DNA from: an uncultured Bacteroidales bacterium
Lineage (GTDB): Bacteria > Bacteroidota > Bacteroidia > Bacteroidales > TTA-H9
Direction: 5' to 3'
Assembly: GCA_964550695.1 (NCBI GenBank)
Contig: CAZKCK010000001.1
Coordinates: 7,427-71,426, forward strand
DNA length: 64,000 bases
The position numbers and the translations under genes are program-made. Shown piece by piece: positions 7,691 through 33,337 of this stretch (the first letter of the stretch is position 1; each line of letters opens with the position of its first letter). The notes under the pieces are model-generated. The model was not told the origin of the DNA. It was given only the letters and a program-made list of their open reading frames with translations, and searched no databases.

Positions 7691-8095
7691 ATGATAAACA
7701 AGGATGCCAGAAGCAAGACACGTTACTCTGATGAGGAACTTATTGAATTTAAACAAATTATACTTGAAAAGCTGGAAAAAGCAAAAAACGATCTTAAGCT
7801 TTTGACCGAAGCCTATACCAATACTGATGAACATGGCACCAACGATACTTCTCCAACCTTCAAAGTTTTGGAAGAAGGTTATCAGGTAATGTCGAAGGAG
7901 GAGAACGGTAAACTGGCTGCACGTCAGCACAAGTTTATTACTTCGCTCGAAAACGCACTCGTCCGGATCGAAAACAAGTCATACGGAATATGCCGTGAAA
8001 CCGGAAATCTTATTCCCAAGGAAAGGCTAAGAAGTGTTCCGCATGCTACTTTAAGCATCGATGCAAAATTAAGTCAGAAAAGACGTGAAGGATAA
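7691..8095 (+). CDS. DksA/TraR-family protein with degenerate zinc finger
   Basis: It has a coiled-coil N-terminus and the C-terminal segment YGICRETGNLIPKERLRSVPHATLSIDAK. The gene sits between ileS and lspA. Only one Cys remains in the finger. Confidence 0.75.
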   Translation: MINKDARSKTRYSDEELIEFKQIILEKLEKAKNDLKLLTEAYTNTDEHGTNDTSPTFKVLEEGYQVMSKEENGKLAARQHKFITSLENALVRIENKSYGICRETGNLIPKERLRSVPHATLSIDAKLSQKRREG

Positions 8096-8128
8096 AAACA
8101 GTTTAAAAACAAATAATCCCTTTCTTTT

Positions 8129-8773
8129 GTGAGGCCAAAACAAGCATCAATTCTGGCAATTTCAATAATAGCAACTATTATCATAATTGATCAGGTACTA
8201 AAGTTTTGGATCAAGACCAATATGTTCCTTGGGCAGGAAATACCTGTATTTGGCAATTGGTTTATTATCCATTTTACTGAAAATGAGGGTATGGCTTTTG
8301 GGTGGAGTTTTGGGGGCAATGCAGGAAAACTACTGCTTTCGATTTTCAGAATTGCTGCACTTTTCGCCATCGGCTATTACCTGATAAAAACCACCCGAAA
8401 TAAACCCGGCAAAGCCCAGATTATTGTTTTGGCTTTGATTTTTGCCGGAGCTCTTGGTAATATCATCGACAGTTGCTTCTACGGCCTTATTTTTAATGAG
8501 AGCAGTTATTACCAGACAGCCGTACTTTTACCTGAAAATGGAGGTTATGCCCCGTTTTTATATGGAAAAGTAGTGGACATGCTTTATTTTCCAATCATAA
8601 ATACCACATTGCCTGCCTGGTTTCCATTTGGCGGTGGTGAAGAATTCAGGTTTTTCAGACCTGTTTTTAACATTGCAGACTCCTCAATTTCAGTTGGAAT
8701 TTTGATCATTTTACTCTTTCAGAAAAGAGTCTTTGCTAAGAATGAACAAAAGACGGTAACTGAAGGTTCTTAA
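8129..8773 (+). CDS. lspA: Lipoprotein signal peptidase II
   Basis: GTG start. It is a multi-TM protein with the conserved LGNIIDS and FNIADSSISVG aspartate motifs, and it lies downstream of ileS. Confidence 0.9.
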   Translation: MRPKQASILAISIIATIIIIDQVLKFWIKTNMFLGQEIPVFGNWFIIHFTENEGMAFGWSFGGNAGKLLLSIFRIAALFAIGYYLIKTTRNKPGKAQIIVLALIFAGALGNIIDSCFYGLIFNESSYYQTAVLLPENGGYAPFLYGKVVDMLYFPIINTTLPAWFPFGGGEEFRFFRPVFNIADSSISVGILIILLFQKRVFAKNEQKTVTEGS

Positions 8774-8823
8774 ACTTGATAATATAACCACTAAACGATA
8801 CGTTCACTTTAGTACCAAAATAC

Positions 8824-8831
8824 TATTTTTG
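8824..8831 (+). promoter_or_regulatory. Bacteroidota -7 promoter box TATTTTTG
   Basis: TAnnTTTG match 27 nt upstream of the atpD ATG. Confidence 0.5.
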
Positions 8832-8849
8832 CTACCCGATTTAAATTAA

Positions 8850-10370
<1,521 letters not shown>

Positions 10371-10381
10371 TACCGGTAATT

Positions 10382-10621
10382 ATGAACGTTGAAATTATTA
10401 CGCCCGAAACCACTGTATTTTCAGGAACAGAAATTAACCTGGTCCAATTGCCTGGTTTAGACGGCTCTTTTGAAATTCTCAACAACCATGCTCCACTTAT
10501 TTCTGCGTTGAAACGAGGGAAGATTAAACTGATAAAGCAGGATAAATCAACTGAATTTTTTGAAATAAAAGGCGGAATGGTGGAAGTAACCAAAAATAAG
10601 GTTCTGATACTGGCTGAATAA
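10382..10621 (+). CDS. atpC: F1 ATP synthase epsilon subunit (short, beta-sandwich only)
   Basis: It lies immediately downstream of atpD. The N-terminal epsilon fold sequence is MNVEIITPE..VFSG.....LPG..G.F.IL..HAPLI. At 79 aa it lacks the C-terminal helical hairpin. Confidence 0.85.
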   Translation: MNVEIITPETTVFSGTEINLVQLPGLDGSFEILNNHAPLISALKRGKIKLIKQDKSTEFFEIKGGMVEVTKNKVLILAE

Positions 10622-10625
10622 ACGC

Positions 10626-10652
10626 AGGAGGGTTCATCCCTCCTTTTTTTTT
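10626..10652 (+). terminator. Rho-independent terminator after atpC
   Basis: The stem aggaggg/ccctcct encloses a 5-nt loop and is followed by a run of 9 T. Confidence 0.8.
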
Positions 10653-10906
10653 ACCTGATGTTTTCCGTTTAAACAGTTTGCCCCCTATGGCATTTTTAAC
10701 CCGTAAACCAAACCGCTTCACCTCCGTACGCTGCACATGCCAAATTCAACAATACTGGCAAAAGAAATCCGCCTTCACAATATTTTCTGATGGATATATG
10801 AGGTAATTAACCAAAAGTTATTAACTTTACTTTTCTTGAAAAATATGCCAATATTTGCTTGAATTGTTTTAAATCTGGAAATTATTTTATTCAAAATCAA
10901 TACTAT

Positions 10907-12895
10907 ATGAAGGAGGAACTGTTCAACATACTCATTGTTGACGACAAACCCGAAAACCTTCTGACCCTGGAAAGCATTCTTGAGAGCCCGGAGTTAAATA
11001 TTGTTAAGGCTTCATCTGGTAATGAGGCTCTTGCATTGATGTGGGAGCATGAGTTTTCACTTGTACTGATGGATGTTCAGATGCCGGAAATGGATGGATT
11101 TGAAACGGCCGAAATCATGCGCTCACGGGAAAAAACCAAATCAATCCCAATTATTTTTGTTACCGCAATCAACAAAGACCGAAAGAATATTTTCAGGGGT
11201 TACGATACCGGTGCTGTGGATTACCTTTATAAACCCCTTGATCTTGAGGTCTTACGAATAAAAATTAAAGCATTTCTGGAATTCTTTAAAAGTCAGGAGG
11301 CCCTGAAAAGGACATCGAGAAAACTAGCCCAGACAGTTGTTGAACTTGAGAAGGCTAAATTCACTGCCGAGGAAGCAACACGTGCCAAAAGCATGTTTCT
11401 GGCAAGCATGAGCCACGAAATCAGAACTCCCATGAACGGGATTATTGGTATGACTGAATTACTTATGCTCGACAACCTGACTCCGAACCAACGCGACAAA
11501 GTTCTGGCAATCAAAGAAAGTGGCGAATCATTACTGGATATCATTAACGACATCCTGGATATTTCAAAAATAGAAGCAGAAAAGGTAATCCTCGACAATG
11601 CGCCTTTTGACATACAGGATATCTGCATTCGTGCTTCTAAAATGTTGTCAATTAAAGCTTTTGAAAAGGGATTAGGACTCAGTTTTAACATCGATCCCAC
11701 AATTCCTGAATTGATCGGCGATCCGGTACGTATCAGGCAAATATTGATAAACCTCATTGGAAATTCAATTAAATTTACACACAGCGGTTACATTGATATC
11801 GATATAACACAAACCAGAACCAACGAAGGAGTCAACCTTCAGCTTTCAGTGACCGATACAGGTATCGGAATTGCACCTGACCGGATTGGCCGTTTGTTTG
11901 AAAGCTATAACCAGGCCGACTCATCCATCAACAGCAATTATGGCGGAACCGGACTGGGACTTGCTATCTGCAAAAAACTTGTTCTGCTGATGAATGGCTA
12001 TATAAAAGTTGATAGCTTTCCGGGTGCCGGAAGTTGTTTTACCATAAATATCCCTTTAAAGACCTCGGGAAACAAGACTTTTTGCCAGGAGCATCCTGAA
12101 TTGAGCTCATCCTCTTACCTGATTATCGGACATGATTCAAAAGACAACCAATCCATAGTATCAAATCTTGAACAGGCCGGATCAGCTTGTTCACAATTAT
12201 GCACATTGCCTGAAATTCAAAATATTGATATACAGAATTTTAATTATGTGATGATTGATTCGGATGACTTAGCCGTTAAAAAAACAGATGATCCGGGGTT
12301 AATTCTAAAAAATACGTCAAAGCACCTGATGAATCTGAAAATTATCCTGTTCGGAAAAGACCCAACAATAAAACATGCATCAGAATTTACAAATTCGGAA
12401 TATATCGGGTTTATAAGCAAACCGATCATTATCAAAGAATTATATGGATTTATTCACAATACATCTAAACAAATAAACCAACCAACCGATCTTTCCGGCA
12501 AAGAAACATTGCTAAGTTCAAGACCACTACATATATTACTTGCTGAAGACCAGGTTATCAACAGAAAAATCGCTTCAGAGCTTCTGACCAAAAGAGGGTG
12601 GACGGTTGAGACCGCAGAAAACGGACTTATTGCAGTTGAAAAGTATCAAAACCATCACTTTGACCTTATCCTTATGGATGTTCAAATGCCAGTTCTTGAC
12701 GGTTATGAGGCTACACAACGCATCAGGGAAATTGAAAAAACCACAGGTCTCCGTATTCCTATTCTTGCCATGACCGCCCATGCAATGGTTGGTGATGAAG
12801 AAAAGTCACTTGACAGCGGGATGGATGCACATATTACCAAACCTTTTAAGCCCGCAGATTTATACGCAACCATCGAGAAAGCCATAAAACACTAA
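10907..12895 (+). CDS. Cytoplasmic hybrid histidine kinase (REC-HisKA-HATPase-degenerate REC-REC)
   Basis: - N-terminal REC: [12 protein letters not shown]...[13 protein letters not shown].
- H-box: [14 protein letters not shown].
- ATPase boxes: [27 protein letters not shown].
- A receiver-like degenerate segment follows: YLIIGHD...VMIDSD...ISKP.
- C-terminal REC: [12 protein letters not shown]...[13 protein letters not shown]...TKP.
- No TM segment is present.
- I trimmed the track's TTG start at 10859 to the ATG at 10907. Confidence 0.9.
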
Positions 12896-12905
12896 TCATA
12901 TTGTT

Positions 12906-15900
12906 ATGAAGTTTATTAAAAACCTGAAAATAAGACATAAACTCTATCTGATAACAGCCGTTTCTGTTATCAACATCCTGCTAGTGGGTATTACTGCAAA
13001 TTATTTTTTTAAAACCAGTGACGTTGTGGCTTATATCCTGAAAGGCCACAGGCTGCATAATGTTAATTTTCACGCAGGTATACGTGACTTTTACAAATAC
13101 CAGCTTACAAAGGATACCGTTGACCTGAACAATGCCATGGCCAAACTTGAGTATGCTGACAGGCTTTCGTACCTTTTTGGAAATATGAATATCATACCTT
13201 ATCAGCAAACACATGCTGAATTTGAAAAGACATTGTACAATTCATTCGGCGAAGCATTTGGTTATGATTTTAATGCGGCCAGAATAACCGCGAGCCGTGT
13301 AAAACTGCTTCTTAAACTGAACAGCCCAAATTTCAACCAAAGCCTTGAAATTGCACGTGAAGTTAATAAACGAGGACGTGATGTAATGAAGTACATGAAA
13401 ATGTACATGAAAACCCCTGATGACCAGGGTGTCAGGAAAAATCTTGATGAGGCCATAGCATCGGTTATCAGTTACGAAACCACATTTGCAAATGGGGTGA
13501 ATGGAATCAATACTTATGTAATGAAGCTCCTATTAACCGGAATTCTGGTGATTGTTGTGTTACTGGGAGCCCTGACACTGATAACCAGTCTGTACGTAGC
13601 CAAACTAATCTCCAGGCCTGTGCTGACCATTGTTGATAGTTTTAAAAACCTTGCTGATGGCGATCTCTCTTCTGAATTACTAATCACATCAACCGATGAA
13701 ATTGGTACGCTGGCCAAAGCCATCAATACAACCCTTAAGGTTCTCAAAGAAGTTACAAATCAGGCCAATAATATTGCAACCGGTGATTACAGTACTGTTA
13801 TTAAACCCAGATCCGATAAAGACGTGCTGAGCATTGCCCTCAGCCATATGACAGAACAACTGCGCATGAACGCACTTACAATCGGACAGCAAAACTGGCT
13901 TAATGAAGGTCTGGGTACGCTGAATGACCTTACGCGCGGCGACAAAGAACTCAATAAAGTTACCAAGGAAGTAATTACATTTATCACAAAATCAGTCAAT
14001 AGCAATGTGGGTTTATTGTATCTGAAAGACAATGATGGCATCCTGAACCTTGTTTCAACGTATGCTTATTACGACAGGCGTGGCAATTTCAGCAAGATAA
14101 AGCCAGGAGAAGGTATCATTGGTCAAACTGCAATTGAGCGTGAAATAATTGAATTCAAAGGGATTAAAGATGATGCTCCAACATTCAACAATGGCCTTCA
14201 GGAAGAAATCCCCACATTTATACTCACAGCTCCCCTGGTTTTTGAAGACGAACTTATTGGGGTGATACTGCTCGGAAAACAGGAAACGTTTAATGATATA
14301 CAGAAACAATTTATCAGGACAGCTCTTGAAAATACTTCAATCTCAATAAACTCAACAATCACAAGATCAAAAATTGAATTACTGCTTCACCAAACGCAGG
14401 AACAGGCTGAAAAACTACAGGTTCAGCAGGAAGAATTGAGGCAGAGCAACGAGGAACTTGAAGAACAGACCCGGGCCTTGAAGGCATCAGAAGAAGCGCT
14501 ACAGGCGCAACAGGAAGAATTGCGCGTGACCAATGAAGAACTTGAAGAGCGCACCAGAACCCTTGAAAAAGAAAGAGATACTATTTCCAAAAAAAATCAG
14601 GAACTGCGACTGATGCAGGAAGAAGTAGAGAAAAAGGCACGCGATCTCGAAACTGCCAGTAAATACAAATCAGAATTTCTGGCCAATATGAGTCACGAGC
14701 TCAGGACACCCCTCAACAGCATTCTGGTTTTGTCACAACTTCTTGCTGATAATAAAGCCGGGAATCTTCAGGAGAAACAAATAGAATTTGCTAAAACCAT
14801 CAACTCCTCAGGTGCTGATCTGCTTTCACTCATCAACGACATCCTGGACCTTTCAAAAGTTGAATCGGGCCGTATTGATATACACCCCGAAAGAATCATT
14901 TTATCGGAAATTGCGGCCTGGACCGAAAAAATATTCTCGCCCATGGCGCTTGAAAAAAGCATTTCATACAATACAATTATCGATGAAAGCCTTCCGTCAT
15001 TTATACTTTCGGACTATAAACGGCTTAGTCAGATCATTAAAAACCTGTTATCGAACGCAATCAAATTCACCGATAAGGGAGGCGTAACACTGAAAATTTC
15101 AAAACCTTTACCTGATACAAAATTCAGAAGAACCGGTTTCAATGCTGCCGAAACAATAGCCTTTACCATATCAGATACCGGAATAGGAATAGCCTCTGAC
15201 AAACAACAGGTTATTTTTGAAGCCTTCCAGCAGGCTGATGGCACTACAAGCCGGAGGTATGGAGGCACAGGGCTCGGGCTTACCATTTCAAGAAGTTTTG
15301 CTCAAATCCTTGATGGTGAAATTCACCTGAACAGCAAGGTAGGGGAGGGGAGTTCATTTACACTTTTTATACCTTATGCTATTTCAGGTGCTGAATATAT
15401 GGCAAATGAACCCATTATTGAAACAAAAGAAACAGGAATATCAACCACTTCTTTTCAAAGCAAGAAACCAATACAGGTATCTCAATCAATAACCGATGAC
15501 CGCGATAACCTGCTGCCCGGAGACAGAACAATACTCATTATTGAGGATGATGTAAATTTCTCATCGGTATTGTGCAATCTGGCACGTGAAAAAGGCTTTA
15601 AATGCATTGTAGCCGATGAAGGTGAATCAGGGCTGCATTATGCTGATTTTTATAAACCCAGTGCCATCATCCTTGACATTGGCCTTCCGGGAATCGACGG
15701 GTATGAGGTTTTACGGCGTATCAAAGCAAATCCCGAAACAAGGCATATTCCGGTTCATTTCATGTCAGCAAGAGAAGAATCGAATGATGCATTGAAAATG
15801 GGCGCCATCGGATTTCTCTCAAAACCGGTAAGCCTCGAAAAACTCTCATCGGCATTTAAGCGTATTGAAGATTTTATTTCGAAGGAAGTAAAAAAACTAC

Positions 15901-16694
15901 TGATTGTTGAAGACGATGCCAACATGCGCAAAAGTATTACCGAACTTATTGGCGACAAAGATGTGAATACAGTGGCAGTTGACAGTGGTGAAAAAGCCTA
16001 TGAATTGCTGCTAAAAGAACAATTTGACTGCATCATTCTGGATTTGGGGCTCAAGGGCTCCAGTGGAATTGACATCCTGGAAAAAATCAGAAAAAACGAT
16101 GCGATTTCCCATGTTCCGGTTGTTATTTATACGGGCAAGGACCTGAGCATTGAAGAAGAAACCATGCTTAAAAAGTATGCTGACAGTATCATTATCAAAG
16201 GAGCCAAATCACCAGAGCGGCTGCTTGCAGAAACTTCCCTCTTCCTGCACAGGGTTGAAGCCAATCTGCCGGGTGATCGCAAAAAACAGCTCGAAATGCT
16301 GCAGGACAAAGAAGATATTTTCAAGCAGAAAAAGATTCTTTTAGTTGACGATGACATGCGCAATGTATTTGCTTTATCGAGCGTACTTGAAGAAAAAGGA
16401 ATGCACATTGTGGTTGGCCGTAACGGACGCGATGGACTTGAAAAACTGGCTAAAAATCCTGATATAAACCTCATCATTATGGACATTATGATGCCCGAAA
16501 TGGATGGTTATGAGGCAATCAGAGAAATACGCAAAAATCCCCTTTCGCAAAAGTTACCGGTTATTGCGCTCACAGCCAAGGCAATGAAAGATGACCGTGA
16601 AAAATGTATTGCGGCCGGAGCCAATGACTATCTCACAAAACCGGTTGATACCGCAAGGCTATTATCACTGCTACGTGTTTGGTTATATAAATAA
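12906..16694 (+). CDS. Transmembrane hybrid sensor histidine kinase (TM-periplasmic domain-TM-HAMP-HAMP-like-GAF-coiled coil-HisKA-HATPase-3xREC)
   Basis: - Two TM helices (LYLITAVSVINILLVGITANYFF and ILVIVVLLGALTLITSLYVAKLI) flank a domain of about 170 aa.
- HAMP: DEIGTLAKAIN.
- GAF-like: GLLYLKD...GEGIIGQTA...LTAPLVFEDELIGVILLG.
- H-box: MSHELRTPLNSIL.
- G-box: GGTGLGLTISR.
- Three receivers: ILIIEDD...IILDIGLPGIDG, LLIVEDD...IILDLGLKGSSG, ILLVDDD...IIMDIMMPEMDG. Confidence 0.92.
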   Translation: MKFIKNLKIRHKLYLITAVSVINILLVGITANYFFKTSDVVAYILKGHRLHNVNFHAGIRDFYKYQLTKDTVDLNNAMAKLEYADRLSYLFGNMNIIPYQQTHAEFEKTLYNSFGEAFGYDFNAARITASRVKLLLKLNSPNFNQSLEIAREVNKRGRDVMKYMKMYMKTPDDQGVRKNLDEAIASVISYETTFANGVNGINTYVMKLLLTGILVIVVLLGALTLITSLYVAKLISRPVLTIVDSFKNLADGDLSSELLITSTDEIGTLAKAINTTLKVLKEVTNQANNIATGDYSTVIKPRSDKDVLSIALSHMTEQLRMNALTIGQQNWLNEGLGTLNDLTRGDKELNKVTKEVITFITKSVNSNVGLLYLKDNDGILNLVSTYAYYDRRGNFSKIKPGEGIIGQTAIEREIIEFKGIKDDAPTFNNGLQEEIPTFILTAPLVFEDELIGVILLGKQETFNDIQKQFIRTALENTSISINSTITRSKIELLLHQTQEQAEKLQVQQEELRQSNEELEEQTRALKASEEALQAQQEELRVTNEELEERTRTLEKERDTISKKNQELRLMQEEVEKKARDLETASKYKSEFLANMSHELRTPLNSILVLSQLLADNKAGNLQEKQIEFAKTINSSGADLLSLINDILDLSKVESGRIDIHPERIILSEIAAWTEKIFSPMALEKSISYNTIIDESLPSFILSDYKRLSQIIKNLLSNAIKFTDKGGVTLKISKPLPDTKFRRTGFNAAETIAFTISDTGIGIASDKQQVIFEAFQQADGTTSRRYGGTGLGLTISRSFAQILDGEIHLNSKVGEGSSFTLFIPYAISGAEYMANEPIIETKETGISTTSFQSKKPIQVSQSITDDRDNLLPGDRTILIIEDDVNFSSVLCNLAREKGFKCIVADEGESGLHYADFYKPSAIILDIGLPGIDGYEVLRRIKANPETRHIPVHFMSAREESNDALKMGAIGFLSKPVSLEKLSSAFKRIEDFISKEVKKLLIVEDDANMRKSITELIGDKDVNTVAVDSGEKAYELLLKEQFDCIILDLGLKGSSGIDILEKIRKNDAISHVPVVIYTGKDLSIEEETMLKKYADSIIIKGAKSPERLLAETSLFLHRVEANLPGDRKKQLEMLQDKEDIFKQKKILLVDDDMRNVFALSSVLEEKGMHIVVGRNGRDGLEKLAKNPDINLIIMDIMMPEMDGYEAIREIRKNPLSQKLPVIALTAKAMKDDREKCIAAGANDYLTKPVDTARLLSLLRVWLYK

Positions 16695-16700
16695 ATACCG

Positions 16701-18317
16701 ATGGACAATAAACCAAAAATACTGATTGTTGACGACAAAGAACAGAACCTGATTACCCTCGAAGCTGTATTGGGCGATTTTGAGGTAGAATTTATTCGGG
16801 CATTGTCAGGCAACGAAGCCCTGGCTCTCAGCCTTGAATCTGACTTTGCCCTGGCCATCATCGATATTCAGATGCCGGATATGGACGGCTATGAAACCGT
16901 AAAGCTGATGCGGCAGGTGAATCGCACAAAAAATCTGCCAATAATATATGTATCAGCAATTTACAAAGAGGAGTTTCATGTTGTAAAAGGCATTGAAGCC
17001 GGAGCTGTTGATTTTATTGTGAAGCCAATACTGCCTGAAATTCTGAGAGGTAAGGTTAAGGTTTTTCTAGAGCTTTACAGGCACAGGGTGAACCTTGAAG
17101 AGCTGGTTACCCAGCGCACCAATGAATTACAGCGTAAAAATGAACAGTTTCTGCACGAAAAGCAAAAAGCTGAAGCTGCAACCAATTCCAAATCAATGTT
17201 TCTGGCAAATATGAGCCACGAAATAAGGACTCCATTGAATGGGATTATCGGGATGGCAAATCTGCTTAAACGCACCGGATTAAATGCTGAGCAAAAGGAA
17301 ATGCTGGATATCATTTCAATATCGAGCGATTACCTTTTAACGGTAATCAACGACATTCTCGATTTTTCTAAAATTGAATCCGGTCAGGTTGAACTTGAAA
17401 ACATCCCTTTTAACCTGTTGGAAACCCTGAATGAAACCCTGACCATATTCATTCCACGTCTGCTTGATTCTCCTGTAAAAATGGAATTAAAACTATCACA
17501 GACGGTGCCAAAATATGTAAAGGGCGATCAGGTCAGGCTCAAACAAATCCTAAGCAATTTACTGGGAAATGCAGTAAAGTTTACCGAAAAAGGGCAAATC
17601 CTGCTCGAAGTCAGGTTACTGGAAGAAGGTGCTGATTATTTGAAACTGAAATTTGATGTAAAAGATACCGGTATCGGTATTGACGAAGACAACCTATCTA
17701 AACTCTTCAGGTCATTTTCACAGGCTGATGCATCAACTACCCGCAAGTACGGAGGAACAGGGCTCGGCCTTGCCATTAGTAAAAACCTTACTGAAATGAT
17801 GGGTGGCAATATTGATGTTAAAAGTAAAAAAGGACAGGGTTCCGATTTCTTCTTTTCTATAAGATTTGACAAAATTACGGATGAAAATGAAATTCAGAGG
17901 TTAATAAAAGCCAAGCCTGACCTGCATGTGATTAACAATACAAAGAAAATACTGCTTGTTGAAGACAATGTTATCAACCAGAAAGTAGCTTCATACACAC
18001 TTAAAAACCTGGGTTTTAATTACAGGATAGCGAATAACGGACGTATTGCTTTTGAACTGTACAAAGAAGAACCATTTGACATTATCCTGATGGATATACA
18101 AATGCCTGAAATGGATGGCATTGAAGCAACTCAGGCAATCAGGGCCTATGAAGCCGACATCAACTTAAAACCCGGTGTAACCATTATTGCCCTTACTGCC
18201 AATGCCATTAAAGAAGCCATTGATGAATACCTTAAAAAGGGAATGAATGGCTTTTTGCCAAAACCATTTAAACCAGAAGAACTTCTACGTTTAATTAACA
18301 CGCTTTCAAATGAATAA
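16701..18317 (+). CDS. Cytoplasmic hybrid histidine kinase (REC-HisKA-HATPase-REC)
   Basis: - N-terminal REC: [11 protein letters not shown]...[12 protein letters not shown].
- H-box: [14 protein letters not shown].
- G-box: [11 protein letters not shown].
- C-terminal REC: [12 protein letters not shown]...[13 protein letters not shown]...PKP.
- No TM segment is present. Confidence 0.9.
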
Positions 18318-19173
18318 AAACCAGGGACCAGAATTAAACCATGAAAATCTGAATATAGAAATAAAGCTTTTACTCGAAGCTTTGTATCTTAAATATGGTT
18401 ATGATTTCAGGAGTTATTCACAGGCGCATATAAAACGCCGGTTGCTGCACCGTATGAACCTGAGCAACTGCAACAGCCTTTCTGAAATGCAATATAAAAT
18501 ATTGTATGATCAGGCATATGCCCAACAGGTATTATTTGATTTCTCAATAAACGTTACTGAAATGTTCCGTGATCCGGATTTTTACAAAGCTGTGAGAGAG
18601 CAGGTGGTTCCAATCCTGAAGACCTATCCGTTTATAAAAATCTGGCATGCAGGATGTTCAACGGGTGAGGAGGTCTACTCAATGGCCATTCTGTTAAAGG
18701 AAGAAGGTCTTTTTGAAAGATCGCAGATTTATGCTACCGACTTTAACCAGAAAGTACTGAAAACGGCAAAAGATGGCATTTTCCCGATTGATAAAATTAA
18801 AGAATACACTTACAATTATCAGAAAGCTGGCGGAAAAGAGTCATTTTCAAACTATTACGATGCGGATTACAATTCAGTGATCATCGATAAAAATTTAAAA
18901 AAGAATATCGTTTTTGCTGATCATAACCTCGTGACTGACAGTGTATTTGCTGAGGTTAATCTGGTTTTCTGCCGGAATGTGCTGATTTATTTTACCAAAG
19001 AACTTCAGGATAAGGTAATCCGGCTTTTTCTCGAAAGCCTGATTCCGGGTGGTGTTTTATGCCTTGGATCAAAAGAAAACATACAATTCTCTGAACATGG
19101 CAGTCATTTTTCAGTAATTAACCGTAACGAAAAGATTTTTAAAAAGGAATATTCTTACAAAAACACCCTGTGA
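18310..19173 (+). CDS. cheR: CheR-type protein-glutamate O-methyltransferase
   Basis: It has the all-alpha N-terminal region plus the SAM-binding core [19 protein letters not shown] and [10 protein letters not shown]. Its start overlaps the upstream kinase stop by 8 nt (ATGAATAA). Confidence 0.85.
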
Positions 19174-19745
19174 AAAATAAAAATCAATACAAGGCTGTGG
19201 TCATTGGTGCATCGGCAGGAGGGCTTGATGCGCTTTCAAGGCTTTTGTCCGGAATTCCCGAAAGCTTTAAACTGCCTGTATTGATTGTTCAGCATTTGAG
19301 TCCGCATTCTGATAACTATCTGGCACAGCACCTTAATAACCTTTCGGCTTATACCGTGAAAGAAGCGGAAGAAAAGGAAACAATTTCGCAACATACAGCC
19401 TACATTGCTCCTCCCAACTACCATTTGCTGGTGGAAGATAATCTAACACTATCGCTGAGCGTGAGCGAAAAAGTAAACTATGCAAGACCCTCGCTTGATG
19501 TATTGTTTGAAACTGCTGCGTACGCCTATGGCAAAGGTCTGATATGCATTGTTCTCACCGGAGCCAATAACGATGGAAGTAAAGGAGCCCGTACGGTAAA
19601 AGATTTTGGTGGACTTGTAATTGTTCAGGATCCTGATACAGCTTATGTAAAAACAATGCCAGAGGCTGTAATAGCAATTGTAAAACCCGATTATATCCTT
19701 CCGATCGAAAAAATGCCGGAACTGCTTCTGAATCTGGTAAAATAA
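19170..19745 (+). CDS. cheB: CheB-type protein-glutamate methylesterase, catalytic domain only (no receiver)
   Basis: Candidate catalytic residues are Ser in VIGASAGG, His in LIVQHL and Asp in TGANNDG. The protein is 191 aa. Its GTG start overlaps the cheR stop (GTGA). Confidence 0.85.
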   Translation: MKNKNQYKAVVIGASAGGLDALSRLLSGIPESFKLPVLIVQHLSPHSDNYLAQHLNNLSAYTVKEAEEKETISQHTAYIAPPNYHLLVEDNLTLSLSVSEKVNYARPSLDVLFETAAYAYGKGLICIVLTGANNDGSKGARTVKDFGGLVIVQDPDTAYVKTMPEAVIAIVKPDYILPIEKMPELLLNLVK

Positions 19746-19749: not shown

Positions 19750-19768
19750 AAGCCCTTTATGGGGGCTT
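19750..19768. terminator. Hairpin between cheB and tRNA-Phe (possible bidirectional terminator)
   Basis: The stem aagccc/gggctt encloses a 7-nt loop. It is flanked by an A-rich tract upstream and a weak T-rich tract downstream. Confidence 0.4.
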
Positions 19769-19783
19769 CGTTTATCCTGAGGG

Positions 19784-19856
<73 letters not shown>

Positions 19857-19958: not shown

Positions 19959-20711
19959 ATGATAAGTATCGCAATTGATTTGGGAAATACAAACCAGAAG
20001 GTGGCTCTGTACAACGGTGACCTGAATGTGGCAACGGGCATCTTTGCCCGGCTCTCACCTGCAATTCTTCAGAATTTCATTGATGAGCATTCTCCTAATT
20101 CCGGGCCACCAACATCAGCAATACTTGCAACGGTTGTTGATATTCAGGGAGAATTGCTGCAATATCTAAAAACCAACTTTCATTATTTTCAGTTGAATCC
20201 GGGCTTACCCTTACCTATTACCATTGCATACCAAACGCCACAAACACTTGGACCTGACAGAATTGCAGCAGCCGTTGCTGCAGGCAGCAGGGCCGGAGAA
20301 TGTGCTTCGCTGTCAATAACTGCAGGTTCATGCATCATTTATGACTTTGTTGACCAACACAAAGTATATCATGGAGGTGCAATATCACCCGGTCTTGAAA
20401 TGCGTATGAAGGCTCTGAATACTTTCAGCAACAAGTTGCCGTTAGTTACAGCACAGCCGTTTGATGAACTTATTGGGCGTACTACAAATGAATCAATTTT
20501 ATCAGGGGTATTAAATGGAATTGCACATGAAATTGACGGTTTTATCGACAAATTCAGACTAAAATATCCTGAAATTATCGTATTTATGAGTGGTGGTGAT
20601 CTTAATTATTTTGATAAACGACTAAAAAATAACATCTTTGCAGTCCCGAATCTTGTTCTTGAGGGACTTAATAAAATAATACTGTTTAATGAAAACCACC
20701 AACAGGTTTAG
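19959..20711 (+). CDS. coaX: Type III pantothenate kinase
   Basis: The N-terminus ISIAIDLGNTNQKVALY carries the ASKHA phosphate-1 motif. GPDRIAAAVAA and the 250-aa size fit CoaX. Confidence 0.85.
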   Translation: MISIAIDLGNTNQKVALYNGDLNVATGIFARLSPAILQNFIDEHSPNSGPPTSAILATVVDIQGELLQYLKTNFHYFQLNPGLPLPITIAYQTPQTLGPDRIAAAVAAGSRAGECASLSITAGSCIIYDFVDQHKVYHGGAISPGLEMRMKALNTFSNKLPLVTAQPFDELIGRTTNESILSGVLNGIAHEIDGFIDKFRLKYPEIIVFMSGGDLNYFDKRLKNNIFAVPNLVLEGLNKIILFNENHQQV

Positions 20712-21978
20712 TTACTTTTTTGTTATCGGCTTTCTGCTTATTTATACCAACGCAGGATATAGCCAAACCAACTATAACTCAGCATATTCACATTATGGTA
20801 TCGGAGATCTCTCAAACATAACTGATACACGGAGTTTTTCGATGGGTGGCATCAGTTATGGCCTCAGGGGATTCTACAACATCAACCATAAAAACCCGGC
20901 ATCGTACACCTCTTTCGACTCCCTTTCTTTTGTATTTGAAGGCGGTATGTTTTCAAATTTTATCACACATAAAACAACTGCATTTTCGGAGCAGGCCTCC
21001 AATGCAGGGCTTTCGTACCTGACTTTCGGGTTTCCGGTAACACGTTGGATGAGTGCAAGTTTTGGTGTACTTCCATTCAGTACGGTAGGCTATAACATTT
21101 ACGACAAGGAGGTGGATCCCGTTTTTGGCGATCTTAACCAGATTTATAGCGGCGATGGAGGTACTGTTCAGTATTATGTGGGAACGGGCTTTAAAATTAA
21201 TAAACATCTTTCTTTGGGAATCAATGCCTGGTACCTGACAGGTAACCTCGAAAGTTCCAATATGCTGAATTTTGCCGATTCCAGTATGGCGCTTAATACA
21301 CGGGTAACACAAAATATTCTGGTGGGTGATATAAACTTTACTGCTGGTATTCAATACAATACGATTATTGGTAAGGATCTGCGTTTCAATACTGGTTTTA
21401 CCTATGGAAACGGTAAAGAAATGAGCGCTACCCGTGAATTACTGGTAGAAACACTATTTGGTGGAATCAATAATCAAAATGAGTATAACAAAGACACTAT
21501 TTTATATGAAGCTCCGGTAGATGGTAAAATTAAACTTCCGATGGTACTTGGTGGAGGTTTTGTTTTCGAAAAACCGGAAAAATGGTTGATTGGTGCAGAC
21601 ATTGAATATGGCTTCTGGAAGGATTATGCCTCATTCGGCATAAATGATAGTCTCAAAAATTCCCTCAAAATAAGTGTTGGAACCGAAATTATCCCAAATG
21701 CCACAAGTATTTCCAAATACTGGCAAAAGATCAGGTATCGCGCAGGTTTCAGATATTCACAAAGTTATCTTGAACTCAAAAATACAAACATCAATGAGTT
21801 TGGCCTGAGTTTTGGTCTAGGGTTGCCAATTAAGCGTTTGGCCACAACCCTGAATTTTGGTCTTGAATTTGGAAAACGCGGAACGATTGAAAACAACCTG
21901 ATTCAGGACAATTTTTTTCGCTTCCGTCTAGGTATCTCAATTACTGAACGATGGTTTGTAAAACGCAAATATAATTAA
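20689..21978 (+). CDS. Outer-membrane beta-barrel protein of unknown function
   Basis: The signal peptide is MKTTNRFSYFFVIGFLLIYTNAGYSQ. Alternating aromatic/Gly-rich beta-strand patterns run throughout, and the C-terminal strand is aromatic-rich. The start overlaps coaX by 23 nt. Confidence 0.6.
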   Translation: MKTTNRFSYFFVIGFLLIYTNAGYSQTNYNSAYSHYGIGDLSNITDTRSFSMGGISYGLRGFYNINHKNPASYTSFDSLSFVFEGGMFSNFITHKTTAFSEQASNAGLSYLTFGFPVTRWMSASFGVLPFSTVGYNIYDKEVDPVFGDLNQIYSGDGGTVQYYVGTGFKINKHLSLGINAWYLTGNLESSNMLNFADSSMALNTRVTQNILVGDINFTAGIQYNTIIGKDLRFNTGFTYGNGKEMSATRELLVETLFGGINNQNEYNKDTILYEAPVDGKIKLPMVLGGGFVFEKPEKWLIGADIEYGFWKDYASFGINDSLKNSLKISVGTEIIPNATSISKYWQKIRYRAGFRYSQSYLELKNTNINEFGLSFGLGLPIKRLATTLNFGLEFGKRGTIENNLIQDNFFRFRLGISITERWFVKRKYN

Positions 21979-27714: not shown

Positions 27715-29661
27715 TTGATACGACAGGAAACCATAGCCAAAATACTTGATGCTACGCGCATTGAAGAAGTAATAGGAGAATTTGTAAACCTGAAAAAGCG
27801 GGGAAGCAATTATACCGGACTGTGCCCTTTCCACAACGAAAAAACCCCATCCTTCTCAGTATCACCAGTAAAAGGTATCTACAAATGCTTTGGTTGCAGC
27901 GCTTCGGGTACAGCAGTTAAATTCATGATGGATCATGAGCACTATACTTATCCGGAAGCCCTGAAATACCTGGCCCGCAAATATAATATTGAAGTAGAGG
28001 AACAGGAGCAAACTGCCGAAGATATCAGGGCAGCAGGGGAGAAGGAAAGCCTGTTCAGTGTAAGCGCACTGGCTGCTGGATTCTTTAGTGAAACCCTCTG
28101 GGAAACCGAACAGGGCCGCTCTATTGCCCTTTCATACTTCGAGGAACGCGAATTTGATCATCAGACAATCAAGAAATTCGGGCTGGGCTTTGCCCCTGAC
28201 AGTCGTGATGCTCTTTACAAATATGCCGCAACAAAAGGTTATAAACCCGAATATCTTGAAAAAGCAGGATTAACAATTGTAAAAGAAGATGCACACATTG
28301 ACCGCTTCAGAAACCGTGTAATTTTCCCCATACATAACCTCTCAGGCCGTATAATTGGTTTTGGAGGCAGGATTCTGACAAAGGAAAAAAACCTCGCCAA
28401 ATACATCAATTCGCCCGAATCAGAAATATACCATAAAAGCAATGTGCTGTATGGAATCTTTTTTGCCAAAAAAGACATTGCCGCACTCGACAATTGCTTT
28501 TTGGTTGAAGGTTATACCGATGTTATTTCGATGCATCAGGCCGGTATAAACAATGTGGTGGCATCATCTGGAACCTCACTTACTACTGAACAGATCAGAC
28601 TGATAAAACGCTATACACCCAATATCACAATTCTGTACGATGGCGACATGGCGGGTATAAAAGCCTCATTCAGGGGAATTGATATGGTACTGCAGGAGGC
28701 TATGAATGTACGGATAGTGCTGTTTCCGGATGGTGAAGACCCCGATTCATTTGCACGCAAAAAGCGTCCGGAAGAGGTAAAAGAGTATATCAATAAGCAG
28801 GCTCATGACTTCATTGTATTCAAAACCAACCTGTTGCTGAAGGAGGCTGAAGGTGATCCGGTAAAAAGGGCTGGTCTTATCAAAGAGATTATTTCCTCCA
28901 TTTCATTGATTCCGGATGCAATTATACGCGAAGAGTATATCCGTGAATGCTCGGCATTGATGGATGTTCGTGAACAAACCCTGATTTTTGAACTCAACAA
29001 ACTACTCAGGAAAGGACTGAGAAAAGATGAACACACGGCCATTTCTGATAATATTCAGGATATACCTCCTATTGACCTGCCTGCTCAGAAAGAAGCTGAA
29101 ACACTTTCTATACATGCTCAGGAAGCCAATATCATCAGGGTGCTGCTCAATTATGGCGAACTGGATTTCTCATTTCCAATTATTAAACCAAAGGGAATTG
29201 TTGAGGAGGTTCCTGTAAAAACTGCCTTTTTTATTGTAAATGAACTGCTTGAGGATGATTTCACATTTGAAAATCCGGTCTATCAAAAAATTTTCACTGA
29301 ATATAAAGAAGCCTTTAAAAATGAATTGGTTCCGGGAGAACAATTTTTTATCAACCATCCGGTTCCTGAAATAGCCGACCTCACCATCAGTATTATTACT
29401 TCGCCTTTTCAACTGAGCCCCAATTGGTACGACCTAAAAGGGATTCATACACCGTCGGAAATTGAAAACCTTAAAGATCTGGTGATTAACTCTGTTTATA
29501 CCCTAAAACTTAAAAAAGTTGAATTAATGATAGCGGAAATTCAGGAAGAAATAAAAATTGCAGAAGTTGATGATGCACTTATTCTGCTTAAAAAGCAAAT
29601 GGATCTGATGTCGCTCAGGGAAGCTATTTCAAAACAACTCGGACGGAATATCCTTAATTGA
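27715..29661 (+). CDS. dnaG: DNA primase
   Basis: It has the zinc-ribbon CPFHNEKTPSFSVSPVKGIYKCFGC and the TOPRIM motifs VEGYTDVIS and LYDGDMAG. The start appears to be TTG, and no in-frame ATG lies upstream of the zinc ribbon. Confidence 0.92.
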   Translation: MIRQETIAKILDATRIEEVIGEFVNLKKRGSNYTGLCPFHNEKTPSFSVSPVKGIYKCFGCSASGTAVKFMMDHEHYTYPEALKYLARKYNIEVEEQEQTAEDIRAAGEKESLFSVSALAAGFFSETLWETEQGRSIALSYFEEREFDHQTIKKFGLGFAPDSRDALYKYAATKGYKPEYLEKAGLTIVKEDAHIDRFRNRVIFPIHNLSGRIIGFGGRILTKEKNLAKYINSPESEIYHKSNVLYGIFFAKKDIAALDNCFLVEGYTDVISMHQAGINNVVASSGTSLTTEQIRLIKRYTPNITILYDGDMAGIKASFRGIDMVLQEAMNVRIVLFPDGEDPDSFARKKRPEEVKEYINKQAHDFIVFKTNLLLKEAEGDPVKRAGLIKEIISSISLIPDAIIREEYIRECSALMDVREQTLIFELNKLLRKGLRKDEHTAISDNIQDIPPIDLPAQKEAETLSIHAQEANIIRVLLNYGELDFSFPIIKPKGIVEEVPVKTAFFIVNELLEDDFTFENPVYQKIFTEYKEAFKNELVPGEQFFINHPVPEIADLTISIITSPFQLSPNWYDLKGIHTPSEIENLKDLVINSVYTLKLKKVELMIAEIQEEIKIAEVDDALILLKKQMDLMSLREAISKQLGRNILN

Positions 29662-32600
29662 TTATAAGCTTCATTATCTGATGTTTAGTTTTTAAATAAT
29701 AGGTACCTGCCGCAAGTTTATTCAGCAAAAATCTGATATTTACAGAACCCTGGGCCAAAACTTTGGCTGTAACCAGCTTTCCGGATTCATCAAATAATTC
29801 AACAATCACATCAGAGTTCAGCGCTGTCTTATACTTTAGGAATATCTCATCATGGGCTGGATTGGGATAAATACTAAATTCCTGTGCTTTGGCATTATCC
29901 AAAATTCCCCAACCCGGGCAATGCGTCATCATAATTCTGACAGAATCAGTAGCTTCACACCCAAATTCATTGCCAACAACCACTTTAAACCACCGGGATT
30001 CGCCAACAGGTACCGTTAAAGAATCAATTTCCAGAAACCGTCCGGTGCTTCCTGTATTCCAGGTGTACATCACCTGATCAGGTCCGGCATCCAGAATAAT
30101 GGTCTGAAGCGTGCAAATGCTTGTATCAGGTCCCAGTTCTACAACCGGGAGCGGGTTGACGTTTACGGTAACTGAATCACACTGAGAAAAACCGCAGGCA
30201 TTGGCCTTTACGGCATAAAACACGGTATTTGTTACCGGAGCCTGAACCGGTTGCGCGTATGATTGCCCAATGATTGCGCCATTACATGAACCGGTATACC
30301 AATAAATTGAATCAACTGACACCGAATCTGCTGAAAGTATAATTTGATTCACTGCCCCGAGGCAATATACCTGCGTACTGACGGTAAGATTTTGCGGGCT
30401 CAGAGGAGGATTTTGAATATACAGGATAAGTGAATCCATTGCGATCGCCATGTTGGTAATAGCCTTGATTTTTAGTGTCACGAAACCATTGGCTATATCC
30501 TGTGCTCCGGGAAAATAATCAGTTTCGGGAGATGACTGCTGGTTAAAAACACCATCACCTGTTGTTGACCACTGTATGGAAGAATAATTCTGTGCCATCG
30601 CATTCAGGTGAATTGAGTCCTGACCTGAACATATTCCGGTATCACCGCCGGCTTCAACAACCGGCAGATTGAACACAGGAAGTGATATATAATCAAGCCA
30701 GATTTTATCTACCCCGGCCGAAAAATATGAATCTTTTGAATATTGCCACCTGAGTGTGTGGTTCCCGGCCGGAACCATGTAACCAACACGTTTCCAGTCA
30801 CGTATTCCTGACCATTTTCCCTTTCGTATGTTGTCAACATAAAACTCAAGCTGGTCATAATTTGATTCTGTAGACGTTTTATACCAGAAAGTTACAGAAT
30901 CGTCGGAGGCAATGTCATAAGTCAGTTTCAGGACAGATTCTTCTTCATCGTCAATATCGCCGGAAGAAGCGCTCCATACCCCTTCGTAAGGAAGTGCCGG
31001 AGTGAGGCTGAAAAGTGAATTTCCGGATCTCATCCAGGGATATTTTGTAAACGTGTTGGTTTCCCAATCTTCAACAATTAATCCTACACGCGAAAAAAAG
31101 TTTTTTGATACATGGTGAAGTCCCGAGATTGCCCTGAACCGAAAAAGTAAATTAATGCCGTAAGGCGTATTGCCAGCCAGAGACACCTGAAAAAATGCTG
31201 TATCAGTCTGATTGCTAACGAGCTGTGGAAGAACAGAACTATCTTCCAGAATAATAAGTTCAGATGTTGAAGTTGTAAGAATATTCAAGACTTCGCCAAG
31301 CGGATAATCACCTGAATTTCTGATAATCAATCTGATTTCTGCTGTTTCACCCGGATCAAGAATTCTGTTGTTGTTTCCGGTAAAGTCATTGATGCTGTAC
31401 GTTAAAATTTCTAATTGCGGAGCCATCACATCACATTGAAAATGGCTGTTCCATGTACTGTCACCATCCGTGGCCTTCAGGTCAAATCTCACTTTGATAC
31501 CGTCAGGGATTGTATCCGAAACTTTAAGTGTAAAACCTTCTTCTTTGGTAACAGATTGTCCGGTAAGGAAATTCCCGTAAGGTTCAAGACTGTCAGTGAT
31601 TACAATATATGGTGAACTGGTCGACAACCTGACCATTACATTCTGTGCATCCTCATCACCGATATTTTGCATTGAGATTGTAAAATGTACTGAATCACCG
31701 TTGCTTAATGTTTGCTGCAATGATGCATCGGCAGGCGTAATATCCACATTTTCATAAATCACATAAGGCTGATTGGGCGGCGGACCGGTTTCAAACGGAC
31801 TGACATAGGCCAACGTTTTCCCTGAGCGGTTGTCGCTCCATACAGGATAAACCTTGCGATCATTGGCCGATATCCCAAGGTAATCGCCAAAATAGCCTCC
31901 TGCAAGCCCGGGAATAGGAGCGGGGGTAAAAGCAAAATCACTCACCCTGAAATCTTCCCAGTTTTGCCCTCCATCATATGAATTGGCAACATAAATTTCA
32001 CATTGATCCGTTCCAACGTTGCGGTCATCAAAGAAAATCACACTCAGCGTACCTGTTACGGCATCGCAGGTTATCCAGGGCATAAAATGCTGTTTCCCGA
32101 TTCCTGAAAGATCCTGGTTCACTTTAAGAGGTGTGCTCCATGAACTGCCGAGGTCCGTTGATTTTATCATGTACACATCCACATCCGGACCGGAATTGAT
32201 GCCCGGAAAACCAAGATTATTCCATACAACATAAATGCTGCCCCGGTTCGGGCCATTGCTCAGGTCAACTGACATAGCAGGAAAGCCGCTTACACGCATA
32301 TTTTTGGTTGTAAGAGAATTCCGCAAACCATTTATATTGAATATTATACGATACGCCTGATCAAACGTCTGACCTCCATCGAATGAACGGGCAAATCCGA
32401 GCGCGTTTTCATCTGCCGGCCAGTTATCATATATTGCCCACACAGCATACACTTCACCATTGGGTCCCGTCTGGACATTCACACCCTGATTGTGCTTCAA
32501 CGCATTGGCACCATTGCTTATGCTCACGGGAACTGACCATGCCAATCCATTATTTACTGAGCGTGAAAGTTGAATCTGACCATCGTCTGTTCCACCAAAG

Positions 32601-33301: not shown

Positions 33302-33337
33302 AGCAATACGGGAGTTGATATTCAACGCTAAAAGTAT

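Follow-up and report, generated by a model that had tools for sequence, protein, structure and literature searches.

The element described here is a block of five genes (g1 to g5; Table 1) within a 64,000-nucleotide stretch of contig CAZKCK010000001.1 from an uncultured Bacteroidales bacterium (assembly GCA_964550695.1), referred to below as the window. The block encodes three histidine kinases (HKs), a CheR-type methyltransferase (g4) and a CheB-type methylesterase (g5). We are fairly confident that it represents, in Bacteroidales, the RsbK/CfcA type of "methylatable sensor kinase" cassette, and the explanation that best fits the data as a whole, which by analogy with known systems we consider probable, is that CheR and CheB reversibly modify the signalling helix of the sensor kinase g2. 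The genes are tightly packed, both enzymes are intact, the same gene set recurs in related loci, and no chemoreceptor genes lie nearby.

Methylation-based adaptation is a textbook property of chemotaxis receptors. Methylation of a kinase has so far been shown in part, for one methyltransferase and one kinase in Bacillus cereus, with no esterase. Because both enzymes are present and chemoreceptors are probably absent, the cassette would be a clean system for CheR/CheB action on a kinase, and the comparative data presented below name concrete residues for mutation.

The operon and its products

The five co-directional genes are joined by gaps of 10 nt (g1-g2) and 6 nt (g2-g3) and by overlaps of 8 nt (ATGAATAA; g3/g4) and 4 nt (GTGA; g4/g5). 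A terminator-like hairpin downstream of the neighbouring ATP synthase beta gene (ATP-synt_ab by Pfam) is the upstream boundary, and a second hairpin directly after the g5 stop codon is the probable end, with a tRNA-Phe gene next. Since the junctions are tight and hairpins bound the block, the natural reading is that the five genes form one operon. For g1, a TTG at 10859, upstream of the ATG, is also possible as a start. An Rfam scan found two tRNAs and nothing else, and a promoter scan gave 19 sites against 24.4 expected, Bacteroidota promoters being outside the coverage of that tool.

The Pfam architecture of g2 is HAMP-GAF-HisKA-HATPase followed by three receivers (REC), with HAMP at amino acids (aa) 231-280, GAF at 349-481, HisKA at 588-655 (His597), HATPase at 703-824 and the receivers at 873-990, 996-1112 and 1144-1256. 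Membrane-type hydrophobic segments (aa 11-35 and 200-236, the two transmembrane segments) were found in g2 alone among the five proteins. Its periplasmic domain of ~165 aa has a sub-threshold 4HB_MCP_1 hit as its sole match (20.6 bits against a cut-off of 27); relatives carry dCache_1 or 4HB_MCP_1, and the sensor domain is therefore interchangeable.

The remaining kinases, g1 and g3, are soluble, REC-controlled hybrid kinases and paralogues, with 41% identity over the REC-HK part. Pfam resolves both as REC-HisKA-HATPase-REC (aa 7-120, 160-385 and 543-656 in g1; aa 6-120, 164-389 and 417-532 in g3), such that an N-terminal receiver with intact phospho-acceptor residues precedes a helical linker and then the HisKA/HATPase core. 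The operon total comes to three HisKA/HATPase cores and seven intact receivers, and on alignment the acidic pair, the phospho-acceptor Asp, the Thr/Ser and the Lys are all kept in each of the seven. Within g1, the stretch at aa ~400-525 had no Pfam match even at E≤10; its C-terminal half faintly matches a receiver hidden Markov model (HMM) built in this analysis, and g1 homologues score REC at the equivalent position (REC-HK-REC-REC).

Profile and structure searches place g4 inside the CheR family. It scored 40 bits for CheR_N and 150.5 bits for CheR in Pfam (cut-offs 27 and 27), its best match among solved structures was B. subtilis CheR (5ftw; E 1.4e-34), with 1af7 and 5xlx also found, and it is a bona fide CheR-family protein-glutamate methyltransferase dependent on S-adenosylmethionine (SAM). 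For g5, Pfam reported CheB_methylest only (196 bits) and no receiver, and the best solved relative was the Thermotoga maritima CheB catalytic domain (3sft; E 7e-38). Residues S15/H42/D135 of g5 aligned with S165/H191/D287 of 6ymz, the Pectobacterium atrosepticum enzyme, which have been named as the CheB catalytic triad (PMC7698151), and were invariant among 16 relatives of g5 (54-80% identity). Judged by these residues and matches, g4 and g5 carry the catalytic hallmarks of active enzymes.

Both proteins score far below the NCBIfam chemotaxis equivalog and subfamily cut-offs (88.5 bits against 435 for g4 and the CheR equivalog), as would be expected of a clade apart. Of 3244 matches to g5, the best 120 were all 181-231 aa long and carried PF01339 only. 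An exhaustive search of 1.84 billion cluster representatives yielded 692 g5-like representatives at E≤1e-30; the canonical REC-CheB layout was met in none of the best 150, of which 136 were no longer than 262 aa and the rest were tandem forms, CheR-CheB-like fusions or other extensions. On the evidence of these searches, receiver-less CheB is a large clade of its own. Six longer proteins (P0361, P0362, P0382, P0386, P0489 and P0495; 470-570 aa) have the esterase domain either tandem-duplicated or C-terminal after ~290-300 residues; as the latter length is the size of a CheR, fused CheR-CheB forms appear to exist.

An earlier note, made from the sequence alone, had described five co-directional genes with these gaps and overlaps, three HisKA/HATPase cores with seven intact receivers and one degenerate receiver, a single transmembrane sensor (the 1262-aa kinase), a CheR-family protein, and a CheB consisting of the esterase domain only. 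The open reading frames (ORFs) and junctions read exactly so; the Pfam domains, receiver alignment, hydrophobic segments and CheR matches agree with the description, and g5 is a 191-aa protein with CheB_methylest alone, whose start overlaps the g4 stop. The degenerate receiver of g1 is plausible rather than proven, given the REC scores of homologues on the one hand and the faintness of the match in g1 itself on the other.

Table 1. Coordinates of the operon, its parts and other features of the window (aa, amino acids of the encoded protein).
Feature	Position (nt)	Strand	Description
ORF at window start	1-2177	-	725 aa or more, incomplete at the window start
ATP synthase beta gene	8859-10370		ATP-synt_ab; upstream neighbour
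Terminator-like hairpin and T-run	10626-10652	+	7-bp stem with 5 GC pairs, then TTTTTTTT
g1	10907-12895	+	ORF, 662 aa from ATG
Degenerate receiver-like stretch of g1	~12104-12481 (aa ~400-525)	+	faint receiver-HMM match
g2	12906-16694	+	ORF, 1262 aa
Signalling helix of g2	14349-14750 (aa 482-615)	+	predicted by AlphaFold2 as a single uninterrupted helix into the DHp helix with His597
S-helix repeat 1	14418-14471 (aa 505-522)	+	QVQQEELRQSNEELEEQT; near-invariant in 53 CheR/CheB-linked kinases
S-helix repeat 2	14502-14555 (aa 533-550)	+	QAQQEELRVTNEELEERT; heptad register shared with repeat 1
g3	16701-18317	+	ORF, 538 aa
g4	18310-19173	+	ORF, 287 aa, CheR
g5	19170-19745	+	ORF, 191 aa, CheB; GTG start codon
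Hairpin	19750-19768	+	directly after g5 stop codon
tRNA-Phe	19782-19856	-	next after hairpin 19750-19768
ORF	20689-21978	+	429 aa; no Pfam family above noise
BNR/Ig protein	29654-33325	-	1223 aa, with Por_Secre_tail
Peptidyl-arginine deiminase	33384-35528	-	PAD_porph, Ig-like domains, Por_Secre_tail
ORF	44745-46805	+	686 aa; no Pfam family above noise
Subtilase	46929-50081	+	1050 aa, C-terminal dockerin type I domain

The signalling helix of g2

The proposed substrate region for CheR and CheB is the signalling helix of g2, a segment that no Pfam family covers. AlphaFold2, run on an alignment of 47 homologous sequences, placed a helix at model residues 2-135, with a pLDDT (predicted local distance difference test) of 83-94 over the repeats, and the helix is predicted to be continuous for roughly 115 residues before the phospho-His. 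Acidic pairs recur along it: E509/E510, E516/E517 and E519/E520 in repeat 1, which also holds the Gln pair Q507/Q508; E537/E538, E544/E545 and E547/E548 in repeat 2, whose Gln pair is Q535/Q536; and a further Glu-Glu pair at 529/530. Leu occupies each seventh residue from aa 511 to 553 in unbroken register, and because the pairs 509/510, 516/517, 537/538 and 544/545 each stand immediately before a heptad Leu, they would lie on one helical face. An MCP-like antiparallel hairpin formed by the two repeats (MCP, methyl-accepting chemotaxis protein) was ruled out by the unbroken register and the one-helix model, which argue instead for a long parallel signalling helix.

Among 53 large kinases, the repeat follows the consensus LQxQQEELRxxNEELEEQT and lies between GAF and the H-box in two copies, or three in a few. 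The strict motif QQEELxxxNEEL was found in 55 of the ~2,600 ORFs compiled from 84 loci and the window; all 55 were large kinases, and 53 of them had 2-3 copies. String searches of the literature (QQEEL, NEELEE and the like) returned nothing relevant to the motif.

Repeat 2 is family-wide and includes kinases without CheR/CheB. The second half of repeat 1 is acidic in linked kinases (NEELEEQ or NKELEEQ, i.e. N[EK]ELEEQ), as against NDRLEQQ, NRRLELQ or NEQLELQ, or a missing repeat 1 with the proximal repeat only, in six kinases with no CheR/CheB nearby (from Novosphingobium pNL2, a Streptomyces rimosus plasmid and four metagenomic contigs). This contrast suggests that repeat 1 is the modification segment, and its Glu/Gln pairs are the best candidate methylation or deamidation sites; with six negatives and an exception, P0135, we treat it as a lead rather than a result. 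A rule equating presence of the motif with presence of CheR/CheB was ruled out by single or degenerate repeats in kinases that have neither enzyme nearby. The weaker claim that survives, suggested by a small sample, is that an acidic repeat 1 goes with CheR/CheB.

Related loci, chemotaxis genes and the remaining window

Synteny was surveyed starting from CheB by scanning one genome per species, which produced 80 loci with CheB 51-65% identical; the ORFs of each locus were annotated by HMMs built from the window's own domains, and 39 loci with at least 7 kb upstream and at least 5 kb downstream made up a full-flank subset. The loci came from Bacteroidota (Bacteroidales, Lentimicrobiaceae, Prolixibacteraceae, Flavobacterium including F. 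limicola DSM 15094 [L026], Chitinophagaceae and Sphingobacteriia), Desulfobacterota (Desulfobacterales, Desulfoprunum, Desulfocapsa), Gammaproteobacteria (Thiotrichaceae, Beggiatoa, Thiomargarita), Bacillota (Halanaerobiales, Clostridiaceae), Planctomycetota (Ca. Scalindua), Nitrospirae (Nitrospirota), Lentisphaeraceae (Lentisphaerota), Calditrichaceae (Calditrichota) and Caldilinea (Chloroflexota). CheR was adjacent to CheB in 38 of the 39 full-flank loci, and the CheR-CheB pairing was kept in 77 of all 80. Within the full-flank subset, a co-directional kinase lay within 6.5 kb in 35 loci, a large HAMP-GAF-kinase-RECx3 protein with the S-helix motif was present in 29, and a REC-HK gene in 33. 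The exact g1-g5 order recurred in two loci (L033 and L077), and the commonest Bacteroidales form lacked g3. Complete Bacteroidales genomes with the cassette include OY775914.1, OY787449.1 and OY781436.1. Contigs annotated with Pfam had the same kinase-CheR-CheB pattern and nothing chemotactic. The pairing of CheR-CheB with kinases is conserved and often translationally coupled in many phyla, and the neighbourhood analysis that the earlier note had proposed finds the same kinases adjoining CheR-CheB in at least nine.

A search with aa 481-830 of g2 retrieved at least 7,963 proteins from many phyla at E≤1e-20, with roughly 50-60% identity; together with the 692 CheB representatives, these kinases sharing the signalling helix and core indicate how very large the family is. 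All four plasmid matches inspected that extend over the S-helix lie in a cassette ordered large kinase, CheR, CheB of 189-190 aa, hybrid kinase (L087, L088, L091 and L092; records NC_011984.1, NZ_CP008817.1, NZ_CP045855.1 and NZ_KY000074.1). The plasmid carriers were Allorhizobium ampelinum pAtS4c, Brucella anthropi, Agrobacterium sp. MA01 and an A. larrymoorei Ti plasmid, and the cassettes often lay between insertion sequence (IS) elements, beside YsnF/AvaK and HWE-kinase general stress response genes. Carriage on alphaproteobacterial plasmids, often between IS elements, argues that the cassette is horizontally mobile.

Output genes stand beside the cassette in several relatives: REC-GGDEF in Halanaerobiales, Clostridiaceae, Desulfoprunum and Scalindua, REC-SpoIIE/PP2C in a Bacteroidia metagenome-assembled genome (MAG), or REC-LuxR (REC-GerE). 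In two Ca. Scalindua loci (L071, 10654-12288; L054, 2867-4504), the gene directly after CheR-CheB encodes a REC, degenerate HisKA, REC and GGDEF protein, which looks like a kinase-derived response regulator with diguanylate cyclase output. Two further arrangements were observed. In a Prolixibacteraceae-type group (L018, L021, L035, L036, L043, L078 and L080; about 8000-12200 in each), CheR-CheB lies directly behind a gene for a TerC-family membrane protein; an MCP-like gene had been suspected upstream of CheR in loci with no upstream kinase and proved to be this TerC gene. Poly-HAMP arrays of ~1000-1100 aa with alternating HAMP/HAMP_2 occur in kinases of five loci that share the signalling helix and kinase core, with CheR/CheB nearby in two (L096 and L100) and not in the other three (L093, L097 and L089), several of these contigs being apparently frameshift-fragmented.

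Across taxa, the kinase most constantly linked to CheR-CheB is the g3-type REC-HK. One alternative is that CheR and CheB modify the REC-controlled kinases (g3- and/or g1-type) or their receivers rather than g2. The REC-HK is linked slightly more often than the big kinase (33 vs 29 of 39 loci), it is the only kinase beside CheR-CheB in the TerC-linked loci and in L086, and on the alphaproteobacterial plasmids its gene overlaps cheB. We nonetheless judge this alternative unlikely: a methylation motif was looked for in the linkers of g1 and g3, and the REC-to-HisKA linkers of such kinases are short (~45 aa) and had no Glu/Gln-pair repeat conserved across the set, the strict motif is confined to the big kinases, and in the precedent it is the signalling helix of the sensor kinase that is methylated (PMC4574943).

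The earlier note had also stated that nothing in the 64 kb resembles CheA, CheW, an MCP, an Hpt domain or a response-regulator output, and two kinds of search concur. All non-overlapping window ORFs of 100 aa or more, two end-truncated ones included, were scanned with Pfam, and none contained an MCPsignal, CheW, H-kinase_dim or Hpt domain or a response-regulator output, which confirms these absences; no PP2C- or GGDEF-output response regulator was found in the window, and no Hpt domain within the five operon proteins. Phmmer probes for the MCP signalling domain, CheW and CheA-P1, validated against Pfam, had no match at E≤10 in window ORFs of at least 70 aa or in the ~2,600 ORFs of the 84 loci and window, although for Hpt the single CheA-P1 probe, which also gave no matches, has low sensitivity for a divergent stand-alone domain. 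No MCP, CheW or CheA gene lay within 10 kb in any of the 84 loci, which span at least nine phyla.

These absences bear on two further alternatives. CheR and CheB could serve conventional chemoreceptors elsewhere in the genome, with the kinase adjacency incidental or a matter of co-regulation only; our search of the source genome for chemoreceptors covered the 64-kb window, receiver-less CheB works with MCPs in F3 systems (PMC9239204), and in one plasmid locus an MCP gene lies 3.5 kb off, on the other strand. We regard this as very unlikely in view of the absence of MCP, CheW and CheA genes from the 84 loci and from the Pfam-annotated contexts, the tight and often translationally coupled kinase linkage, the Bacteroidetes genomes without MCPs surveyed by Galperin (2005) (PMC1183210), the P. 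putida homologues reported to have no chemotaxis role (PMC4951495), and the scores of g4 and g5 far below the NCBIfam chemotaxis equivalog and subfamily cut-offs. That the two genes are decaying, non-functional remnants of a lost chemotaxis system is hardly credible. The absence of chemotaxis partners in the window, and nothing else, speaks for it, whereas the g4 and g5 reading frames are intact and overlap their neighbours, the catalytic residues do not vary among relatives of 54-80% identity, and the clade numbers thousands, keeping the same gene neighbours in many phyla. For Bacteroidota and many other non-chemotactic lineages, annotation as "chemotaxis protein CheB/CheR" should not count as evidence of chemotaxis.

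The remaining genes of the window are housekeeping genes and type-IX-secretion cargo typical of Bacteroidota. The close relatives of its ATP synthase beta subunit that carry names all come from uncultured Bacteroidales or Bacteroidetes MAGs, which places the window in uncultured Bacteroidales. The cargo includes a Porphyromonas-type peptidyl-arginine deiminase (PPAD) homologue with Ig-like domains and a large BNR/Ig protein, both ending in Por_Secre_tail (Table 1); a PPAD homologue in an environmental Bacteroidales MAG may merit attention. The ORF running off the window start has several hydrophobic segments near its N-terminus and, at its C-terminus, a long charged coiled coil; it matched no Pfam family even at E≤0.1 and did not resemble the MCP probe. 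A subtilase ends in a dockerin type I domain, seldom seen outside Firmicutes that form cellulosomes.

Proposed mechanism and comparison with known systems

In the mechanism that we propose, each biochemical step of which is modelled on precedent, g2 would sense an extracytoplasmic and/or GAF-bound signal, and HAMP and GAF would pass it into the signalling helix and on to the DHp and His597. The helix would form a weakly packed, highly charged, parallel coiled coil in which each heptad supplies one Leu and the Glu-Glu pairs share a face. CheR (g4) would methylate some of its glutamates, most likely in repeat 1, and the receiver-less CheB (g5) would strip the methyl groups and may deamidate adjacent Gln pairs. 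As charge is neutralised or restored, coiled-coil packing would shift and with it the on/off (kinase/phosphatase) balance at His597, adding a slow set-point, adaptation or memory layer to a two-component pathway. Because the inhibitory receiver is absent, CheB is expected to be constitutively competent, and any feedback would depend on how the substrate helix is conformed and not on phosphorylation of CheB. Phosphate from g2 may pass to its own three receivers, which like that of RsbK are likely inhibitory or a sink. It may also reach g1 and g3 through their N-terminal receivers; these two would act as second-tier kinases of the LvrB kind, switched by phosphorylation of those receivers. The final response regulator would be encoded outside the window; in relatives it is REC-GGDEF, REC-PP2C/SpoIIE or REC-LuxR.

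Methylation might instead act as a static brake, as proposed for RsbM/RsbK, holding the kinase off until stress, with CheB only resetting or maturing it by deamidation. This we consider less likely but quite possible, and it has several points in its favour: in B. cereus methylation represses before stress with no esterase (PMC4574943), some relatives have CheR without CheB (L099), and receiver-less CheB has no obvious feedback input. The presence of CheB with CheR in 77 of 80 loci, with its triad conserved, can be argued to mean that reversibility is selected for, and CheR/CheB action that depends on substrate conformation is sufficient for feedback in chemotaxis models.

Several observations weigh against reversible modification of the g2 helix. 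The canonical MCP methylation consensus [ASTG][ASTG]xx[EQ][EQ]xx[ASTG][ASTG] has no match in g2, and therefore CheR, if it acts on g2, would recognise its sites differently than in chemoreceptors. The S-helix repeats are family-wide and occur also in kinases without CheR/CheB nearby, so that their conservation alone is no proof of modification; the repeat 1 contrast comes from just six contexts lacking CheR/CheB and is not clean, since repeat 1 of P0135 is weakly acidic although a CheR lies nearby. No motif kinase lies near CheR-CheB in 10 of the 39 full-flank loci, and the TerC-linked loci have REC-HK-REC downstream only, or no kinase; as no large kinase stands beside the pair there, the large sensor kinase would be elsewhere or absent. 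CHASE3 gave no Pfam match in g2 even at E≤10, and the link to RsbK, CfcA and BmsA is drawn by architecture and gene context, not by alignment. In P. putida, cfc mutants other than those of cfcA are reported, in an unpublished remark, to keep the CfcA-dependent phenotype (PMC4951495).

The general proposal of reversible modification of g2 remains our preferred explanation. Its fullest form, a complete reversible CheR and CheB loop on a kinase helix at E509/510, E516/517 and E519/520, with CheB governed by substrate conformation and adaptation or memory as the outcome, in a phylum without chemoreceptors, is possible, although we would give it less than an even chance. If it were true, an acidic repeat 1 would predict methylation-tuned kinases among thousands in many phyla.

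Of the known systems, canonical chemosensory adaptation uses the same two enzyme families, CheR and CheB. The N-terminal half of g2 is MCP-like (transmembrane segment, periplasmic domain, transmembrane segment, HAMP, with the weak 4HB_MCP_1 match), and, as in MCPs, the candidate Glu/Gln pairs recur at seven-residue intervals along one side of a long coiled coil after HAMP. Unlike an MCP, g2 has no signalling hairpin and is predicted to form one continuous parallel coiled coil rather than an antiparallel four-helix bundle; the cassette further differs from the canonical pathway in having no CheW/CheA in the window, no methylation consensus and a CheB without a receiver. The last is also a feature of F3 chemosensory systems, where MCPs are served (PMC9239204), and the notion in the earlier note that CheB is switched on through its own receiver was thus overstated.

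For g1 and g3, the prototype is LvrB of Leptospira, a REC-controlled kinase activated by phosphorylation of its N-terminal receiver (PMC13269768). Like LvrB, both have an intact N-terminal receiver, a helical linker and a HisKA/HATPase core, and they adjoin a hybrid kinase that could phosphorylate them, as in LvrA/LvrB; NCBIfam reports partial LvrA-type similarity. They differ in their additional C-terminal receivers and in that no anti-sigma-factor partner was identified, and LvrB-type activation of g1 and g3 is proposed by analogy.

The cfcABCDE and bmsA clusters of P. putida, P. alkylphenolica and P. brassicacearum (PMC4951495, PMC8175716, PMC6849547) resemble the cassette in gene content, with a multisensor hybrid kinase of the CHASE3/GAF type, the CheR and CheB enzymes and one more kinase that contains a REC. 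The P. putida cluster encodes the CHASE3/GAF hybrid kinase CfcA (PP_3761), a CheR/CheB pair (cfcB, cfcC) without a chemotaxis role and a further REC protein (PMC4951495), and the same four-gene composition is found in P. brassicacearum genes 3082-3079 and in the BmsA cluster (PMC8175716). CfcA activates the unlinked REC-GGDEF-EAL regulator CfcR (PMC4951495, PMC6849547), which is encoded away from cfcABCDE just as the output regulator here must lie outside the window, and REC-GGDEF genes flank the cassette in several relatives. The early-surveyed Bacteroidetes genomes have many kinases, no MCPs and no diguanylate cyclases (Galperin 2005; PMC1183210), and the output here therefore probably differs from that of cfc. 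The phylum and gene order are also different, and the g1-type kinase is an addition.

In domain order the sensor kinase is like RsbK of B. cereus (BC1008), arranged as CHASE3-HAMP-GAF-S-helix-HK-CA-REC (PMC4574943; RsbK/RsbM are also treated in PMC12848376 and PMC10950880), which matches the transmembrane sensor-HAMP-GAF-signalling helix-HisKA-HATPase-REC order of g2. RsbM, a CheR-type enzyme from the operon of RsbK, methylates the RsbK signalling helix, given as the target without residues being named; the purified enzyme transfers label from 14C-SAM to RsbK, methylation holds the pathway off before stress with no esterase involved, and the C-terminal receiver is an inhibitory element rather than a relay step (PMC4574943). 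That study counted "127 RsbK-like sensor kinases in 10 phyla" (PMC4574943). In both systems a CheR-family gene lies in the kinase's operon and neither needs Hpt; the output of RsbK can be REC-PP2C, and the L082 relative has REC-SpoIIE. The present cassette departs from RsbK in its added CheB esterase, with which reversal is possible (RsbM is an orphan methyltransferase), in its two extra REC-controlled kinases, in having three receivers on the sensor kinase rather than one, in that no CHASE3 was detected in g2, and in that the window holds no sigma-B partner-switching genes or PP2C regulator.

The RsbK-RsbM(-RsbY) system is reportedly the subject of Chen et al. 2012 (Environ Microbiol 14:2788) and de Been et al. 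2011 (Microbiology 157:3). Set against these systems, the proposal of the earlier note that CheR/CheB are wired to the kinases, with a kinase as methyl acceptor and the output elsewhere, is the reading with the best support, from the conserved MCP-free pairing, the acidic heptads and the RsbM/RsbK precedent, but it is not new. Its view that hybrid kinases normally need an Hpt relay was too strong, as RsbK and CfcA are thought to signal directly to a response regulator (PMC4574943, PMC4951495), and the arrangement cannot be called unexplained by textbook schemes when the cassette type has been described before (PMC4574943, PMC4951495, PMC8175716). That type is already partly characterised, and the operon reported here is a somewhat more elaborate Bacteroidales case of it.

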